Shown in pieces: positions 43,618 to 63,236 of a DNA stretch of 64,000 bases. The stretch's first letter is position 1, and every line of letters begins with the position of its first letter. The notes beneath the pieces were generated by a model, which was not told where the DNA came from, made no database searches, and was given only the letters and a program-made list of their open reading frames with translations. The translations under genes and the position numbers were made by a program. Location: NCBI GenBank assembly GCA_964016885.1, contig OZ024742.1:295988001-296052000 (forward strand), in the 5' to 3' direction. Source of the DNA: Eledone cirrhosa (taxonomy: Eukaryota).

Positions 43618-43931
43618 TCATCATCATCACCGTTTTACGTCCGTTCTTCCACGCTAGCATGGGTTAGACGGGTTGTCCTGTTGTGGGCAGTGTCTGGTCG
43701 GCTGACCATGCCTTGCTCATACAGGAACTGATCTGGCTTGATTTCTACAGCTGGATGCCCTTCCTAACACCAACCTCATTTACAGTGAGTGCTGGGTGCT
43801 TTTTCGTGGCGCCTACACGTCCACTTTACAGTGTGGGCTGGGTGCTTTTTTGCCGTGGCACCTCCACGACCACCTTGCGGTGGGGGGGGGGGGGGGGGCA
43901 TATCGTTTATATGCTTCAGCATGTACCCATG
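43618..43931 (-). mobile_element. RTE family A, copy A3: essentially 3'UTR only
   Basis: Near-identical to 39624-39942. Confidence 0.93.
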
Positions 43932-44371
<440 letters not shown>

Positions 44372-44373
<2 letters not shown>

Positions 44374-45588
44374 TAGAGAATAAATTCCAAACCTGGAAGC
44401 AGGGACTAGAGAGAAAGGGCCTCAAAGTCAACATGACAAAGACTAAGGTCCTTATAAGTAGACGAGAAAACAGAACCCAGATCCCCTCAGGGAAATGGCC
44501 TTGCTCAGTATGTAGGAAAGGTGTAGGTAGGAACTCCATTCTTTGCCCCAAATGCAAACAATGGGTACACAAGAGATGTAGCGGGATCTCAGGAAGCTTA
44601 ATTAAGAATGTAGGATTCACATGCAGCAGCTGTGCTGAAACAGCAAGCAAACAGCCACAGGAAACAAGTACCACCAATCTCTGGGAGGGCCCTGTAGAAA
44701 CAGTAGACAGCTTCTGCTACCTAGGTGACCGAATTAGCAACGGAGGTGGGTGCTCAGAAAGTACAATAACTAGGGTAAGAACGGGATGGAAGAAGTTTAG
44801 GGAACTACTACCACTGCTAGCTGCAAAAGGCTTCTCCCTCAGAATGAAAGGCAGACTGTATGATGCGTGTATCCGAACAGCGATGCTGCATGGTAGTGAG
44901 ACCTGGGCGCTGAAGGTGGAAGACTTACGTAGATTAGAGAGAAACGAAGCCTGCATGCTCCGATGGATGTGTAACAGTAATATACGTGAACGACAAAGCA
45001 TAAATGAATTGAGAGAGAGACTGAGCATAAGAGGAATCAAATGCTGCGTGCAGGAGAGGCGGTTACGCTGGTATGGACATGTGATGCGTATAAAGGATGA
45101 CAGCTGCATTAAAAGGTGCAGAGCACTAGAAGTTGATGGAAACCGCGGAGTGGGGAGACCCAAGATGACTTGGGATGAGGTGATAAAAGCCGACCTTACC
45201 CAACTACACCTCTCAAAGTCAATGACACACGACCGTGACTTCTGGCGTCACGCAGTAATACAGGGTACCCGACCTCCCATGGGTACATGCTGAAGCATAT
45301 AAACGATATGCCCCCCCCCCCCCCACCGCAAGGTGGTCGTGGAGGTGCCACGGCAAAAAAGCACCCAGCCCACACTGTAAAGTGGACGTGTAGGCGCCAC
45401 GAAAAAGCACCCAGCACTCACTGTAAATGAGGTTGGTGTTAGGAAGGGCATCCAGCTGTAGAAATCAAGCCAGATCAGTTCCTGTATGAGCAAGGCATGG
45501 TCAGCCGACCAGACACTGCCCACAACAGGACAACCCGTCTAACCCATGCTAGCGTGGAAGAACGGACGTAAAACGGTGATGATGATGA
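44372..45588 (+). mobile_element. RTE family A, copy A4: 5'-truncated, opposite orientation
   Basis: Open frame LENKFQTW...PPMGTC, then 3'UTR and (ATG)n tail. Confidence 0.95.
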
Positions 45589-47410
<1,822 letters not shown>

Positions 47411-48493
47411 ATCATCATCATCAACGTTTAACGTCCGTGTTCCACGCTTGCATGGGTTTGGACGGGGGGTTTTCCCACTTGAGGCAAGAGTGATTGTCTT
47501 GGTCGCATAGGACTGTCTGGCAGGTTTTCTACAGTTGGATGCCCTTCCTAACACCAACCACATTTACAGTGTGGGTCTGGGAGGTTTTTACCGTGTTGCC
47601 TACATGGCCACATTACAGCGTGGACTGTGTGTTTTTTTGTCGTGACACCTACACGATCTCATTTGTTTCGGCCTGGATGTTGTGGCACCAACATAACTTT
47701 ACATAGAAGGGGGCGGTGTGGATGGGGTGGGGGTGGTGGGACGGGGGTGTATTTTGTTGGAGATGCCTACTGACTGTAGTAGGTTTTACTTTGTATTTAG
47801 GTAAGGCGGGTCTTCTCTATTACTGAGTACCGCCAAAGGTCTCGGTCCAGTAACATTGTCTTGGTGAGGTGTAAGTGTGTGAGGTCGGAGTTTATCAGCT
47901 CGTCCCAGGTTTTTCTGGGTCTGCCTATTCCGTGGCTACCATCTATCTTTATTGCCCTGCACTTTGTTATACAGCTATCGTCCTTCATGCGCATCACGTG
48001 ACCATACCAACGTAGCCTTCTCTCTAGTAAACAACATCTGATCCCTCTTATTTCTAATTTTTTCCTTAGTTCGTTTATGCTTTGCCGTTCACGTATATTA
48101 CTATTACACATCCAGCGGAGCATGCAAGCTTCGTTTCTCTCTAGTCTGCGTATATCCTCTGCACACAATGCCCAGGTCTCACTGCCATGCAACATTGCTG
48201 TTCGTATGCAGGCATCGTACAACCTGCCTTTCATTTTTAGGGAGAACCCTTTAGCGGCTAATAGTGGTATAAGCTCTCTGAACTTTTTCCACCCAGTTCT
48301 GACTCTAGCTACTGTACTTTCAGAGCACCCTCCCCCACTGCTGATTTTGTCACCCAGGTAACGGAAGCTGTCCACTATTTCTATAGAACCCTCTGCGCAG
48401 TTGAAAGAGCTAGTATTTTGTGGGCACTTGCTGCTACTTATTGCCCCAGAACACCGGCCACATGTAAAATCTATGTTCTTAGTTAGCTTACCT
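47411..48493 (-). mobile_element. RTE family B, copy B3: 5'-truncated
   Basis: C-terminal ORF 47797-48375 plus 3'UTR matching B2. Confidence 0.95.
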
Positions 48494-49415
48494 ATATATA
48501 TATATATATATATATAGGTATGTATTTATATACCTATATATATACCTATATATATATATATATATATACATATAGGTATGTATATATATATATAGGTATG
48601 TATATAATATATATAATATATAATATATATATATATATACATAGGTATGTGAAGGGGGTGGATTAGTGGTTTGGGCATTTGTTTTATGATCAAAAGATCC
48701 TGAACTGGGGGATACATTATGTCCTTGAGAAAGACTTCATTTAATAATTCTCCAGTTCACTCAGCTGGCAAAACTTGAGGTTTTTTCTGTAATTCCAGGG
48801 GCCAGTCTTGTTGTGTATGTCATACAAACCCCCTCTGAGAAACACTTCATGGGTGCATGTGTCTTTGGAATGTTCAGCCACTTACATATTAACTTCACAA
48901 ACTTCACAAACAGGCAGTTGATATTAGACACAAAATGTATCATCTTTATCATCATCCCCATCTTTGTTTTACATCAGGCTAGTAAAACAAGAATATATGT
49001 AAGTCAAATGTGGTTACCTGCTCATTTAGGAGGAAAGTAGCTGACTTTATTTGTTTCATCCCATCCAACCCCCGCCAGCATTGGAAAACAAATGTTAAAA
49101 GTGAATATCATGATGATGAAGAGGAAAAGGATGAAAGACAAAGTTGAACATGGCAGACTGACCATCACAAAACATTGTACTCAGTAAAATAGGTAGAATC
49201 ATGTGCTAACGCCATATTTGACAAAATAAAATTATTCTGTTAAAAAACCCTCAGAATGGAAAAAGTATGAGTATTGACATACATGGGACATGAACCCACA
49301 TCTTTGGTTTGCCGGACCATTGTGCTTCCATTACACCCTGCTTTGTCTCTCTCTATATTCTACTCAATGTTTTAACAACTCTGCTAATCATCCACCTATC
49401 TTTATATAAAATAGT

Positions 49416-51933
49416 GATCCTTGAGCCTAAGCAGATGTGCGAGGCTTTTCAAAAGCACTTTGCCAGATTGTTCGGAAGGGGCGGGGAGCCGTTTGGGGAA
49501 GTGGACTTCGGTCCATACCTCGACGGCCTGCCACGTCTCTCGAACAAGGAGGCGAAGTCCTGCGAGGAGCCGATTTCAGCCGCTGAGATAGAGGACGTGC
49601 TGAGCCAATGCGGCAAACGCAAATCCTCGGGTCTCGATGTTCTTCCATACAAACTATATCTAGCTATGCCGGACTTGTTCCCCGATCTCCTCGAGGCGGT
49701 CTACTGCAACTGGCAACAGAACGGGAGAATTCCCTGTGCTGTGACCAAGGGCGTAGTCACGCTAGTGAGGAAGGATGAGAACAAGGGGGGCGATATAAAT
49801 AATTTCAGGCCCATAACTCTGCCAAATACAGAGTTACAGATTTTGGCCAAGGTGCTAGCAAAGAAGTTGGCGCTTGTCATGGGCAACCTGGTGGGAGATG
49901 CGCAGACATGTGCTATCCCATCCAGGTCCATCCACGACAACCTCCACATCATGTGATACATCATAGAGAGGGTTTGGAATGAACCCGACTTGGATCAATC
50001 TAAGGCGTTCGATAGGGTCGACCTTGGTTACCTGGATGCGGTGCTAGCGGTGGCAGGCTTCGGACCCGTTTCAGGGGCTGGATCAATGCCATGCACAGCA
50101 GCCGCATCTGCTCTAGGGTCAAGGTGAATGGCTACCTCTCGGAGCCGTTCAAAATCGCGCGGTCCATCCGACAAGGGTGCCCTCTCACCTCCCTTCTGTA
50201 TGTAATGACTCTAGAGTCACTGTTGCAGAAGTTGGAGTTGTTGCAGGGCATCCCATTGGAACCGGGATTGCACAAAGCGGTATCAGCCTACGCCGATGAC
50301 GTAACAGTAATGGTGTCGACGGCCTCGGAAATCAGGGCGATTGGCACCTTACTGGAGGAGTACGAAAGGTTTACAGGGGCTAAGCTGAACCGGGACAAGT
50401 CGATCGGTCTGCAACTCGGCACGTGGAGGGGCAGATCGATGCCCTCCGATGGCGTCGTCGGGCGCTGGACAGAGGGCCCGGTGAAGTTGCTTGGAGTCTG
50501 GTTCGGACCAGACCTCCAGGTGGAGAAGAACTGGGGTGAGGTAACAAACAGGGTGTTTGCACTGACCCAGAAGTGGGCCGAGTGCAAACTGTCCCTGAGA
50601 GGTCGGGCGGAGGTGGCGAACACTTATATAAAGTCTGTCATCTACTACCTCCTGACTGTTGTGCCTTGCCCAAGGGAAACGCTCGCCAAAATGGAGCTCG
50701 CACTCTTTCAATTCCTTTGGAAGAAGCGGGCTCCTATGGTGAGGAGATCCATCTGCTGTCAACACCCTTCGAAAGGAGGGCTGGGGATGCTGTGGCTAAT
50801 GATACGTAAACACGCATTAAGGCTACGGCACCTCCAGGTATTCCTCACCGGTAAACCGGTGTGGGCCCCATTTGTGAGACGAGCCTTTCCCAGACTTGTC
50901 TCACTCATCGAGCTGCAATCCTGGGTCAAGCAAAGACCGAGAAAACTGGGCGCCTGGCACACCGAGTGTGTCCAGGTGCTCACGGCTCTCTGGCAGGCGG
51001 ACCCGGCTGTCAGTGGAGACTCCACCTCGTCATTCTATAGAGGGCTGGTGGTTAGTAGGTGCGACGATGCCCTCGGAGAAGCCCTAGGCATGGAGGAAGA
51101 CGAACTGGCCAACCTGTTCGGTAGGACATTCAGCCCGGCACCCATGGATAACTTCCAGAGGTCCCTGGCCTGGCAATGCTACCGAGGAGCTCTGCCCATT
51201 CGAGAAAGGCTCTATAGACACGGGCGCCCGGGTAGGGACCCCTCGAAAAAGATCTGTCCCAGATGCGTGTGCAAGGAAACCATTGCACACACATTGGTAC
51301 ACTGCTCGGGCATTGCCGACCTGTGGGGCTATGTCGAACAACTGCTGTCAAGGGTGGGACCGATCCGGTTGACCACCGAGTCTATTGTAACAATCAAGCC
51401 GCCTCCCCTCTTCAAAAACGAAGGAGAGGTGGTGTTTCTGTGCGTAATAGCCATGGCAAAAGAGGTTGTATGGTGGATGCGTCTGAAAGGACTGAGGTCA
51501 GACACCTTTCTCTCTGGCCAACAACTGGTCTGTTTCTTCCGATATCATTTCGGAAGAAGGATCAGGATGGAGCGGGAGGTGCTGCACCCCAGCTGTTTTT
51601 ATGAGAGATGGGTGAGGGTGGCGGGAGTGGCCCGTGTGAATGGGCCTTCACTCTACATCAGACTATAGGTGAGGAAGATGAAAGATCAAGGGAGCACACC
51701 CTCTCTGTGCTCCTGAGGAGAAGGGTTGCGCACTTTTTTTCGGGGATGTGTGCGACCCCCCAAGTCGTCTCCTCCCTATTGAGGATTTTGTTATTAAATT
51801 TATTTTGTTATATTTTATTTTATTTTTATATCTTGTTATTGCCTCCTCCTTATTGAGGACGCCTTTTTATGTAAACTCCCCCCATTGTACTTGTCCGACT
51901 TTTTGATGCCCTGGTGGCAAATAAAAAGAAAGT
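49416..51933 (+). mobile_element. 5'-truncated Tx1/L1-clade LINE, disrupted ORF2 (RT plus C-terminal Cys/His motif), 19-bp TSD
   Basis: NFRPITL, LDQSKAFDRV, IRQGCPL, AYADDV, CPRC..ETIAHTLVHC; TSD tatctttatataaaatagt at 49397-49415 and 51934-51952; stop at 49954 and frameshift near 50070. Confidence 0.92.
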
Positions 51934-58557: not shown

Positions 58558-59191
58558 TAATTGCCTTATGTTGTTTATTACATAATAATATATATATACA
58601 TATATATTTATATATATATGTATATATATATATGTGTATGTATATATATATATATATGTGTATGTATATATATATGTGTATGTATATATATATATATGTG
58701 TATGTATATATATATATGTGTATGAATATATATATATGTGTATGTATATATATATGTGTATATATATATATATGTGTATATATATATATATGTGTATGTA
58801 TATATATATGTGTATATATATATATGTGTGTATATATGTATATATATATGTGTGTGTATATAACTTGTTATAATGTCATAATAGTTTCTTTGTTCTTTTT
58901 CATTAATATATGTATATATATGTATATATATGTATATATATATAGGCTTCTCTGATGATATATATATGTATATATATGTATATATATTGTTATACTTGGG
59001 GAGGGTCATATTTGTGTAATATTGCCAGAATTAATAACAGAACACACTCACTGTTTGGTTGGTTTTCGCTTCTCGCTTCTGTGTCTTTTATATCGGTAAT
59101 CTAACTTACTCGGTCCTCAATGTTGCCATTGACTGACCGACGGTCAAAAACAATACAGATACAATATAGACACAAACACATATATGTAGTT

Positions 59192-59235
59192 TATCATAAA
59201 TCTTTCGTTGCACATCTGCAACATCGTCAGTGGTG
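59192..59235 (-). ncRNA. Minimal hammerhead in inverted pLTR
   Basis: Reverse complement of 60394-60437. Confidence 0.55.
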
Positions 59236-59506
59236 TTATATTTTCCTCCTGTTGTATTGTATGTCTACGCCATTTTTATTCAGTCTGTCTATATATTTAT
59301 TTGCTTGTTTGTTTATTTTATTTTGTCTTCTTTGCGCATGCGTGTGTGTATAGTGTTTTGTTTGCTGTGTGATGGGTGACTAGTGTGTGTTTATGTGCTT
59401 GTTGTTATTGTGCTTGTGTATGTATTTATTTATTTATTTATTTTATTTTATTTACTTATTTATTTATTTATTTATACTTCTCTTAGGTCAGTGTTGTTTG
59501 TTTGGG

Positions 59507-60128
59507 CTTAGATAGGGCTAGACATAAGATAGGGAAAGCCACCTCATGGTACACCAACCAGAGATACCAGAGTGTCATGTTTGTGGACGCCACCCCTGGA
59601 GGGAAATTAGCTAACCAGTGTAGAAAGGCCCTGAGAAAGACCCACTTAAAAATAAAGGTGGTAGAAAAGCCAGGAACCACCATAAAATCCCTGATCAGCA
59701 AAACCTACCCTTTTAAGAAAACCCACTGTACCAATAGGAAATGTATCATATGTAAGGTGGACCCCCGGATAAACTGTAAAACTAGAAACGTAGTCTATAG
59801 CATAAGATGTACAGAGGGTACTTGCAGAAACATGACAACAACATACATAGGTGAGACAGCTCGTAGCATAGGTGAAAGGATAGACCAACACTGGGGGGAA
59901 CTAAAAGGACGAAAAAACGGGTCAGTACTATACGAACATGCTAGACAACAACATGACGGCAACATAGACAACATAGAAATTAGAATAATATCTAAACATA
60001 GAAATGACCCAGCAGATAGTCAAATCAGAGAGGCCAGTGAAATAGAAATTAGAAGACCAAGGCTAAACAGAAAGAATGAATGGAATAACAACAACACCCA
60101 AACAAACAACACTGACCTAAGAGAAGTA

Positions 60129-60131
<3 letters not shown>
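59507..60131 (+). CDS. C-terminal fragment of Penelope-like ORF: Cys-rich linker plus GIY-YIG endonuclease
   Basis: CTNRKCIIC linker, CKTRNVVYSIRC..C..YIGETARSIGERIDQH, LYEH, IREASEI, LNRKNE; no genuine start (truncated at the inversion). Confidence 0.88.
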
Positions 60132-60163
<32 letters not shown>

Positions 60164-60393
60164 GTAAATAAAATAAAATAAATAAATAAATAAATACATA
60201 CACAAGCACAATAACAACAAGCACATAAACACACACTAGTCACCCATCACACGGCAAACAAAACACTATACACACACGCAAACTCATGCGCAAAGAAGAC
60301 AAAATAAAATAAACAAACAAGCAAATAAATAAATATATAGACAGACTGAATAAAAATGGCGTAGACATACAATACAACAGGAGGAAAATATAA

Positions 60394-60437
60394 CACCACT
60401 GACGATGTTGCAGATGTGCAACGAAAGATTTATGATA
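60394..60437 (+). ncRNA. Minimal hammerhead in pLTR, weak stem I
   Basis: cacca-CTGACGA-t-gttgca(gatg)tgcaac-GAAA-g(at)TTA-tgata; same layout as 23909-23951. Confidence 0.55.
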
Positions 60438-60703
60438 AACTATATATATGTGTTTGTGTCTATATTGTATCTGTATTGTTTTTGACCGTCGGTCAGTCAA
60501 TGGCAACATTGAGGACCGAGTAAGTTAGATTACCGATATAAAAGACACAGAAGCGAGAAGCGAAAACCAACCAAACAGTGAGTGTGTTCTGTTATTAATT
60601 CTGGCAATATTACACAAATATGACCCTCCCCAAGTATAACAATATTTGTTTCGACACACAATTTCATATAAAAAACCTCGCAAAACTAATATGTATATAT
60701 ATG

Positions 60704-60743
<40 letters not shown>

Positions 60744-60837
60744 TACTATCAATAATAATGAGTTCAAAACTCAGGCAGTCTTTTACAATGAAATAGCTCA
60801 AAGAAAGAAGTATTTCTGAGCCGTGTAATACATATAT

Positions 60838-60915
<78 letters not shown>

Positions 60916-61272
60916 GTATATATATGTATATATATATGTGTATATATATATGTATATATATATATACATATACATATATATATATATGTGTATATATATA
61001 TATATACATATACATATCACGATAAATTAACGGAGGCATAGGCCGTCGTTATTCCCTGTAAATAATGTGCTCAAAGGGGAAGAGATCCTGAGCCCTTTAA
61101 AATATAATATGTTGAGAAGGCAACACACCAGAGAGAGATATATAGTGCGTTATCAATAATACAGGGAAAAAACCACCAGTGTATGGAATCTATAACCTAT
61201 GAAAGGCAGACTATAGACACGATAATTAAAAATATAAATTAAAGCGTAAATAAATACCTCTATAACTATATA

Positions 61273-61352
61273 ACACACGTACAAATCCAAAGATATGTTT
61301 CACCAGAAATTTGTTGAAAGAAATGGTCTAGTCTCGGTTCATCAGCGTGTGT
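61273..61352 (-). ncRNA. Type I hammerhead ribozyme
   Basis: Reverse complement of 62041-62120. Confidence 0.85.
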
Positions 61353-62040
61353 AAGGCCATACATTTCAGACAACACTAAGAGAATTTTACAATTGACTGT
61401 CCAGCTACATGTGGGAGAGAGAAGTCACAGCGTGTTTAAGGGCAGTGAACCAGTGGCCTCTGAGAGACGAACTGCTAGAAAGGGCAGCCCAAAGCCACTC
61501 AGAGAAGTGTGCTCAACCAAACAGAGATAGGAAAGACTGTTGTTAGGAGCGAAATATCACGATAAATTAACGGAGGCATAGGCCGTCGTTATTCCCTGTA
61601 AATAATGTGCTCAAAGGGGAAGAGATCCTGAGCCCTTTATAGTCTGCCTTTCACAGGTTATAGATTCCATACACTGGTGGTTTTTTCCCTGTATTATTGA
61701 TAACGCACTATATATCTCTCTCTGGTGTGTTACCTTCTCAACATATTATATTTTAAAGGGCTCAGGATCTCTTCCCCTTTGAGCACATTATTTACAGGGA
61801 ATAACGACGGCCTATGCCTCCGTTAATTTATCGTGATATTTCGCTCCTAACAACAGTCTTTCCCATCTCTGTTTGGTTGAGCACACTTCTCTGAGTGGCT
61901 TTGGGCTGCCCTTTCTAGCAGTTCGTCTCTCAGAGGCCACTGGTTCACTGCCCTTAAACACGCTGTGACTTCTCTCTCCCACATGTAGCTGGACAGTCAA
62001 TTGTAAAATTCTCTTAGTGTTGTCTGAAATGTATGGCCTT

Positions 62041-62120
62041 ACACACGCTGATGAACCGAGACTAGACCATTTCTTTCAACAAATTTCTGGTGAAACATAT
62101 CTTTGGATTTGTACGTGTGT
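62041..62120 (+). ncRNA. Type I hammerhead ribozyme
   Basis: acacacg-CTGATGA-acc...ggt-GAAA-catatc(tttg)gattt-GTA-cgtgtgt; perfect 7-bp stem I, 7-position stem III with one U-U, GUA triplet at 62111-62113. Confidence 0.88.
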
Positions 62121-62296
62121 TATATAGTTATAGAGGTATTTATTTACGCTTTAATTTATATTTTTAATTATCGTGTCTATAGTCTGCCTTTCATAGGTTA
62201 TAGATTCCATACACTGGTGGTTTTTTCCCTGTATTATTGATAACGCACTATATATCTCTCTCTGGTGTGTTTCCTTCTCAACATATTATATTTTAC

Positions 62297-62356
<60 letters not shown>

Positions 62357-62367
62357 GTATATATATG

Positions 62368-62398
<31 letters not shown>

Positions 62399-62427
62399 GT
62401 ATATATATAGGTGTATATATATAGGTA

Positions 62428-62470
<43 letters not shown>

Positions 62471-62471
62471 G

Positions 62472-62528
<57 letters not shown>

Positions 62529-62568
62529 GTATATATATATATGTATATATATATGTATATATATATAT

Positions 62569-63168
62569 ATTTGGAGATAATAATAAAGAATTCATATCTA
62601 GTAACATATATATACATACAGATGCATATCAATGCTAGCAAATATATAGGTTTTGTCTTAATAACAGTGTGGTTCAATGCATGGGGTTGCAGAACAATAA
62701 TATAAGAGACGGAAAATAAGAAAATTATAAAATTAACTTACTTACTAAAATATCACTTCCAACTAATTAGTTTCTGGAATGGAGTAAATATATTTTCCGA
62801 AGAAGATATAGAGAAGCATTCCGTCGTCAGGAAAGTCTATTCCCATGTAAGTTTCCAGGCAAAGTGAGGACACTGGAAACTTATTAAAAAATAATTCAGT
62901 GGATAGGAAATAGCAAAGCGTGGACTGAATTCCAAGCCATTGAGAAAATCACTGCCTCTACGTCTGTGGCAAATTCAAAAAGAATCGAACACGTGACATC
63001 GAGGTCAATCAGTGGAAAGTGGTTTGCTAATAAGACAGCGGCCTGCCTACAACCGTAGCAGCAGTCATGGCCAATATTGCTCGACAAATAATTTGGAGAT
63101 AATAATAAAGAATTCATATCTAGTAACATATATACATACAGATGCATATCAATGCTAGCAAATATATA
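62569..63168 (-). mobile_element. Non-coding hammerhead-bearing ~520-bp unit plus ~80-bp terminal redundancy
   Basis: 62569-62648 is repeated directly at 63091-63168; internal hammerhead; TA arrays on both sides. Confidence 0.8.
62755..62836 (-). ncRNA. Type I hammerhead with palindromic stem III and long loop II
   Basis: actttc-CTGACGA-c-ggaatg...cattcc-a-GAAA-ctaatta-GTT-ggaagt; ACTAATTAGT is self-complementary. Confidence 0.78.
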
Positions 63169-63177
63169 ACGTCTCTT

Positions 63178-63236
63178 ATATACATATATATATGTATATA
63201 TATATATGTGTATATATACATATACATATATATTTG

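Follow-up and report, generated by a model that had tools for sequence, protein, structure and literature searches.

A young inverted copy of a dispersed hammerhead repeat in Eledone cirrhosa, likely inserted by Penelope-type machinery and probably copied from a circular RNA

In the 64,000 nt of Eledone cirrhosa DNA analysed here (the window; contig OZ024742.1), positions 61014-62295 hold two arms of one non-coding repeat, joined head to head between (TA)n-rich tracts (Table 1). Self-comparison of the window defines the repeat unit as 61014-61553 (540 nt, 39% GC, minus strand). The left arm, arm A, runs from unit position 1 to 540 and then again from 1 to 86, with no mismatches in the duplicated 86 nt; the right arm, arm B, runs from unit 202 to 1 and then from 540 to 85, with four mismatches relative to the unit. 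The RNA-sense 3' ends of both arms face outward. An earlier note on this DNA had described a 540-nt unit with both arms longer than one unit, and its coordinates were right (626 and 658 nt). It had also described a concatemer of more than two units, which was not borne out, since the longest run in the same orientation is 1.22 units with one hammerhead per arm. The locus therefore has fewer than two consecutive complete hammerheads, the criterion for an ‘active’ copy in bioRxiv 10.64898/2026.07.22.740005. Because there is one hammerhead per arm, this copy is a product and not a source, and it is unable to release a monomer unaided. The unit has no recognisable ORF, as the note had stated; the longest stop-free frame has 70 codons and the longest one starting with ATG has 45. 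The note had further pointed to TA microhomology at both breakpoints, of which the inner overlap is real and the outer TA is trivial inside a (TA)n tract.

Table 1. Coordinates of the features discussed (positions in the window unless a fetched locus, L, is named)
Feature	Position	Strand	Remarks
Arm A (left arm)	61014..61639	- (RNA sense)	626 nt, 1.16 units
Arm B (right arm, inverted)	61638..62295	+ (RNA sense)	658 nt, 1.22 units
RNA-sense 3' end of arm A	61014	-	fixed site A
RNA-sense 3' end of arm B	62291-62295 (unit 89-85)	+	fixed site B
Arm junction, head to head (5' to 5')	61638..61639	.	2-nt TA overlap
88-nt ‘tail’, site B (unit 89) to site A (unit 1)	61014..61101	-	outer end of arm A only
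Left (TA)n-rich target tract	60828..61013	.	
Right (TA)n-rich target tract	62296..62570	.	target-site duplication unreadable within (TA)n
Type I hammerhead, arm B	62041..62120	+	stem I 62041-47/62114-20, CTGATGA 62048-54, GAAA 62092-95, GTA 62111-13; predicted cut after 62113
Type I hammerhead, arm A	61273..61352	-	mirrored copy; predicted cut between 61280 and 61279
5'-truncated Penelope-like element	58985-60690		0.3 kb left of 61014; inverted arms, one-sided tail
Sister family members	L273:2560-3030 and L354-L383		

Other repeats are present in the window. A block at 62569-63180 lies between TA tracts, and its borders are formed by a direct repeat of ~80 nt at 62569 and 63091. A nest of young LINEs, in which frames for endonuclease and RT are present and (TA)n forms the borders, covers 28772-48650 and includes a 490-nt tandem duplication at 36039-37047. 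A weak tRNA-like Rfam match (31.4 bits) at 49283-49337 on the minus strand adjoins LINE-like frames at 49294-51668.

The earlier note had credited each unit with one well-formed hammerhead. This holds for the motif, which is present once per arm, and not for its calling: Rfam at gathering thresholds calls no hammerhead at the locus, and the minimum-energy fold of the isolated 96-mer is not a hammerhead (z -0.13). In a separate calculation, the hammerhead fold with a partial stem II has -11.1 kcal/mol against a predicted minimum of -15.7 kcal/mol. Of 48 distinct copies that were extracted, 35 have both core motifs. In an alignment of 31 rows of related copies (the L131 row, on the wrong strand, was kept in the counts), stem I is 95% paired and contains an A-U/G-C swap (14 versus 15 rows), 19 cells are changed on both sides versus 8.7 in shuffles, and 19 of the 31 rows have a mismatch at the first stem II pair. 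In a sister family of the repeat, another swap in stem I, from C-G to U-A, can be read from the alignment, and 18 of 29 extracts, which include several truncated ones, keep CTGATGA. The covariation represents few independent events among related copies. As read from the aligned copies, the covariation of stem I and the sister-family core point to selection on the fold and not to activity. A subfamily with a duplication within hammerhead stem III is also present (L149, L166, L216, and L218).

Arm starts show no clear enrichment at the predicted cleavage site. The pattern of such a start had 226 matches; of the first 100 listed, most belong to an older subfamily carrying a 2-nt insertion, in which true cut-site arm starts were 0 of 2; the six others comprise two true arm starts (L119 and L144) and four point variants. 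A control position gave six matches genome-wide. A tandem variant at L057:900-1597, which lacks unit 267-416 and hence the hammerhead, contains an 18-nt reiteration that starts exactly at the predicted cut site, twice; as it starts at the cut site and yet is tandem without a hammerhead, it cuts both ways.

A family search of the 3.0-Gb genome with the 540-nt unit gave 2711 candidates, of which 40 were scored, and full units among these were 97-100% identical. The family has two fixed outer ends 88 nt apart, site A at unit 1 and site B at about unit 84-91. Site A joined to TA has 1004 exact-pattern matches in the genome (control, 0) and site B joined to TA has 957 (control, 48), so that the repeat is present in about a thousand copies or more. 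Two samples were drawn with exact-match anchors, both within the initial 260 Mb of a single contig. The A-anchored sample took 90 of the first 100 listed sites and, after L165 (the same insertion as L164) was dropped, consists of 89 loci. The B-anchored sample took 76 of 100 listed sites, three of them without an arm, leaving 73 loci; the 24 listed sites left out were chiefly those beside A-anchored loci. Sixty of the A-anchored loci are two-armed, with B as the partner end in 49 and A in 3, while 45 of the B-anchored loci are two-armed, with A as the partner end in 39 and B in none. Overall, 105 of the 162 sampled loci are two-armed, and 88 of these 105 pair A with B. The circularly permuted ends that had been anticipated were not seen at the outer ends, both being fixed family sites. 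The inner arm ends are variable, with an overlap of 1-24 nt at 38 of 60 sampled junctions (A-anchored). TA repeats start the far flank, on the side away from the anchor, in 69 of the 89 A-anchored loci. Arms with two hammerheads are rare (6 of 261 sampled), and the longest family array is 2359 nt, or 4.4 units.

The arrangement is also kept in more distant copies. Older subfamilies, 77-90% identical, retain both ends and the tandem junction, as does the sister family, which is 65-67% identical, has a 526-nt period, and gave 663 candidates. A further diverged relative of the unit lies at L242:2360-2710. Short SINE-like or other insertions are found within the unit at L024, L119, L126, L147, L161, and L352, several of them near unit 37-64 or 138-147.

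The truncated Penelope-like element (PLE) beside the repeat has arms at 59000-59323 and 60306-60629, a frame of the endonuclease end at 59487-60131, a tail of ~45 nt on the right only, and hammerhead cores at 60399 (+) and 59230 (-). It is an internal control, a PLE with the architecture of the 540-nt repeat. Its family (38,037 candidates) has frames of 1217-1218 aa with an asparagine-rich insert, and its CxxC motif suggests that it is Neptune-like. A second PLE family (~820 aa; 61,933 candidates) is represented by a copy, L085:753-3100, that starts 0.7 kb past the window end; close to its 3' end it carries a hammerhead core with a long stem, and it is flanked by TA. Both protein families are presumably PLEs, given their YVDD, YIGET, and upstream CxxC motifs and their architecture; no Pfam domains were found in the PLE proteins.

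The arms of a locus appear to come from one template. Among 63 young loci there are 13, the locus at 61014-62295 being one of them, in which a rare variant occupies all copies of its position. In these 63 loci, haplotypes at shared family polymorphisms differ in 6/110 comparisons within arms and 4/58 between arms, versus 3623/9024 between loci. Two arms from different subfamilies, that is, from two unrelated RNAs, were looked for and none was seen; the divergence between arms (366/14644) is about that within arms (408/19676). Arms run past the cleavage site in 34/89 and 26/60 cases in the A-anchored sample. Arm survival per 180 nt, considered post hoc, was 70/149, 45/70, and 23/45, and then 2/23 beyond 540 nt. 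In a replicate set beforehand it was 65/112, 40/65, and 27/40, and then 8/27 (p 0.002), a weaker drop than the first. At matched unit positions, 124/252 survived in the first lap versus 8/42 in the second, and this was so for both arm types. Collapse after insertion was considered as a cause of the length drop and rejected, as there is no age effect (2/15 young versus 8/35 older arms survive), with identity to the 61014-61553 unit as a rough proxy of age.

Since each locus carries one haplotype, the cut site is crossed, and survival drops past one unit, a circular template is favoured, and we consider it somewhat more probable than not. Both the circle and the self-cleavage of the repeat are putative and are deduced from DNA. 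Folded as a circle, the 540-nt unit is 59% paired (z -2.2, a value reached by one of 40 shuffles; for the antisense, z -1.4), and its predicted stability is modest. Several points stand against the circle. The drop after one lap is not a wall, as arrays reach 4.4 units; the tandem variant L057 is unexplained by a circle made by a hammerhead; and two polymerases making more than one lap each on one circle, as in the present copy, would require sequential use or strand displacement, which is not known to have been demonstrated.

Overall, the copy at 61014-62295 seems best described, with some reservation, as a young copy of a dispersed non-coding hammerhead repeat that was likely inserted by a Penelope-type RT-endonuclease acting in trans, the template probably being a circular monomer RNA. 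That the machinery was of the Penelope type is very probable. One possible scheme is as follows. Rare copies with two hammerheads would be transcribed, self-cleaved, and ligated to form a 540-nt circle, and both strands within a (TA)n tract would be cut by a Penelope-type protein. Priming may then take place at site A from one DNA end and, from the other, at site B, which lies 88 nt further upstream in the RNA; the end pattern behind this step, A at one end and B at the other, is observed directly. Each cDNA would circle the template past the cleavage site and stop variably, at the observed lengths, with a tendency to stall shortly past one lap, on meeting its own start. Finally, the two cDNA ends would be joined, mostly by short microhomology, to form the inverted structure. 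Arm A of the present copy would by chance have stopped at unit 86, which makes it look like twin priming. For the fullest form of this scheme, in which a Penelope-type enzyme copies a circular RNA made by the ribozyme through rolling-circle reverse transcription, with a fixed site of its own for each strand on the same circle and a stall after one lap, our belief and our doubt are about equal.

The main alternative keeps the same Penelope-type insertion and dispenses with the circle: a homogeneous tandem master would be transcribed into a linear multimer, for the most part uncleaved, to serve as template, or two RNAs of one locus would do so. Such a master also accounts for the crossing of the cut site and for one haplotype per locus. 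Multi-unit loci of up to 4.4 units and the few two-hammerhead arms are known in this family, the tandem L057 lacks a hammerhead, the main substrate in vitro is unprocessed RNA (PMC11167929), and head-to-tail non-autonomous PLEs without canonical hammerheads are described in the available portion of PMC8557442. Against it, the survival drop tracks arm length near 540 nt in both arm types, and there is no pile-up at the lengths set by a cleavage-defined 5' end (806 for A and 717 for B). In addition, 5' truncation should erode the masters, yet the tandem junction is kept in subfamilies of 77-100% identity and in the 66% sister family. We therefore regard the linear multimer as possible but unlikely.

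If the inverted arm were instead a fold-back copy of the first cDNA, made by self-priming and ending at site B, one haplotype per locus would also be accounted for; near-symmetrical junctions are seen at 8 of 60 loci, and self-priming has been proposed for Penelope inverted junctions in the part of PMC3846280 at hand. However, the inverted arm exceeds what the first arm could have templated at 34 of 60 loci, and at 61014-62295 itself unit 87-202 occurs twice in arm B and once in arm A. Fold-back is thus contradicted as a general route and is improbable here; the symmetrical minority may have been so made.

The earlier note had taken the geometry of the locus as the twin-priming signature of TPRT, with a continuous array of ~2.4 units restored by flipping the arm. 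This corresponds to L1-type priming on one linear RNA of 2.4 units. The outer end at 62295 does fall beside the inner end of the left arm (unit 85 versus 86, with the TA overlap), and the same adjacency is seen in a few other loci (L021, L206, L152, L279, and L351). The continuity that is restored by flipping an arm is nevertheless found in just 2 of 60 A-anchored loci (3 of 60 if L152, judged by eye, is counted) and 2 of 45 B-anchored loci, or 4-5 of the 105 sampled two-armed loci. It is not a property of the family, since a fixed terminus (unit 84-91) forms the right outer end. Two single-arm copies, L174 and L225, also stop at unit 86 against TA, an AT-rich spot, and the match in the present copy is most likely due to chance, a variable inner end having come to lie next to a fixed outer one. 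A poly(A) tail is absent. Since the B end, the second priming site, is fixed and not variable, twin priming is refuted as the mechanism of the family and is very improbable for this copy; two fixed outer ends with variable inner ends are instead the published pattern of PLEs. What stood of the note's interpretation is that a young hammerhead repeat was reverse-transcribed into (TA)n, from a template either longer than one unit or circular.

Another reading takes the copies as plain truncated pLTR fragments of an unseen autonomous PLE. Their terminal architecture is that of PLE fragments, and the comparison covers part of the 540-nt family and two PLE proteins. BLAST and nhmmer comparisons of the unit with the two PLE families, their ends included, showed no homology. 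Units run on into units and not into an ORF: a tblastn search with the two PLE proteins against the 222 fetched loci (duplicates included) found no ORF running into the unit at its 5' end, the closest hits having been compared by coordinates, in accord with the absence of linked Penelope ORFs that the note had expected. The repeat has no ORF with RT plus GIY-YIG, and the inner flanks of 29 single-arm loci have no common extension. A profile of 47-52 units returned diverged sister units only and no parent. This reading is as hard to accept as twin priming. Among the listed contig pieces (a minority of all) of runs X1, X2, X3, and X5, none bridges 61638-61639, which speaks for neither side. A read fold-back or assembly artefact has a negligible chance, given that the two arms differ at four sites and end at different family-fixed sites, that the architecture recurs at 105 of 162 sampled loci, and that 15 direct-to-inverted joints are listed elsewhere in short-read contigs of run X1.

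If copying from a circle is true, the repeat would represent a circular RNA parasite that is long-lived and without a surviving autonomous parent, and arm-length statistics would offer a DNA-only test for circular templates. The copying of retrozymes from circles by Penelope-like elements has so far been proposed in print and not demonstrated. In the 540-nt family, about a thousand copies carry the marks of Penelope insertion, and two constraints that can be measured are added, namely that A is at one end and B at the other, and that copying falters past one unit length. Young copies and candidate helper proteins occur together in this genome, which makes the idea testable in the in vitro system already published. 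As a class, the element is known, and the family may already be recorded in repeat databases or supplements; the literature searched, with most subscription journals outside its scope, gave no account of fixed two-site arms or of a one-lap drop for retrozymes.

Animal non-LTR retrozymes are head-to-tail non-coding repeats with type I hammerheads and a GC content below 50%, and they co-exist with PLEs, according to the available parts of PMC7229834 and bioRxiv 10.64898/2026.07.22.740005. The 540-nt repeat is likewise non-coding, head-to-tail, and below 50% GC, with a type I hammerhead and with PLEs in the genome; by these features of its sequence it belongs to this class. It is likely mobilised by Penelope. 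In the same two texts, as far as they were accessible, mobilisation of retrozymes by PLEs is proposed, with RT acting on a circle to give tandem cDNA, and circles and cleavage are shown, whereas the present repeat is known from its sequence alone; of nine frog retrozyme dimers, one was cleaved (bioRxiv 10.64898/2026.07.22.740005). The unit of 540 nt is above the range of 150-450 bp given in the excerpted PMC7229834 and inside that of 51-972 bp in the excerpted bioRxiv 10.64898/2026.07.22.740005. The family is mostly dispersed as short copies, and those parts of the sources give no description, for retrozymes, of two-armed insertions whose two ends are fixed.

PLE insertions have an inverted arm, a one-sided tail, and (TA)n targeting in the passages available of PMC8557442 and PMC3846280. 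With EN+ PLEs, the repeat shares 5'-truncated arms, a head-to-head partner, a tail at one end, (TA)n, and a hammerhead near the end, as far as PMC8557442, PMC3846280, PMC11167929, and PMC4209133 could be consulted. Unlike them, it has no RT/GIY-YIG ORF and its unit repeats into itself; it also has no homology to the PLE pLTR in the two families compared, and its tail is 88 nt versus the 30-40 nt reported for PLEs. In vitro, two RT start sites bound the PLE tail, both strands are extended, the start sites are used alike on both strands, and hammerhead cleavage is dispensable (PMC11167929). The pairing of A with B is near-strict in the 540-nt repeat, in contrast to these strand-indifferent start sites.

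In L1 twin or dual priming, both DNA ends prime RT to give two inverted fragments head to head (PMC2837659, in the part available), and the 540-nt repeat is alike in having two inverted fragments with a head-to-head joint. In contrast to L1 as described there, it has no poly(A), its second site is fixed, and its arms overlap in sequence; the twin-priming fragments of L1 are complementary parts of one linear RNA, whereas the arms of the 540-nt repeat are not.
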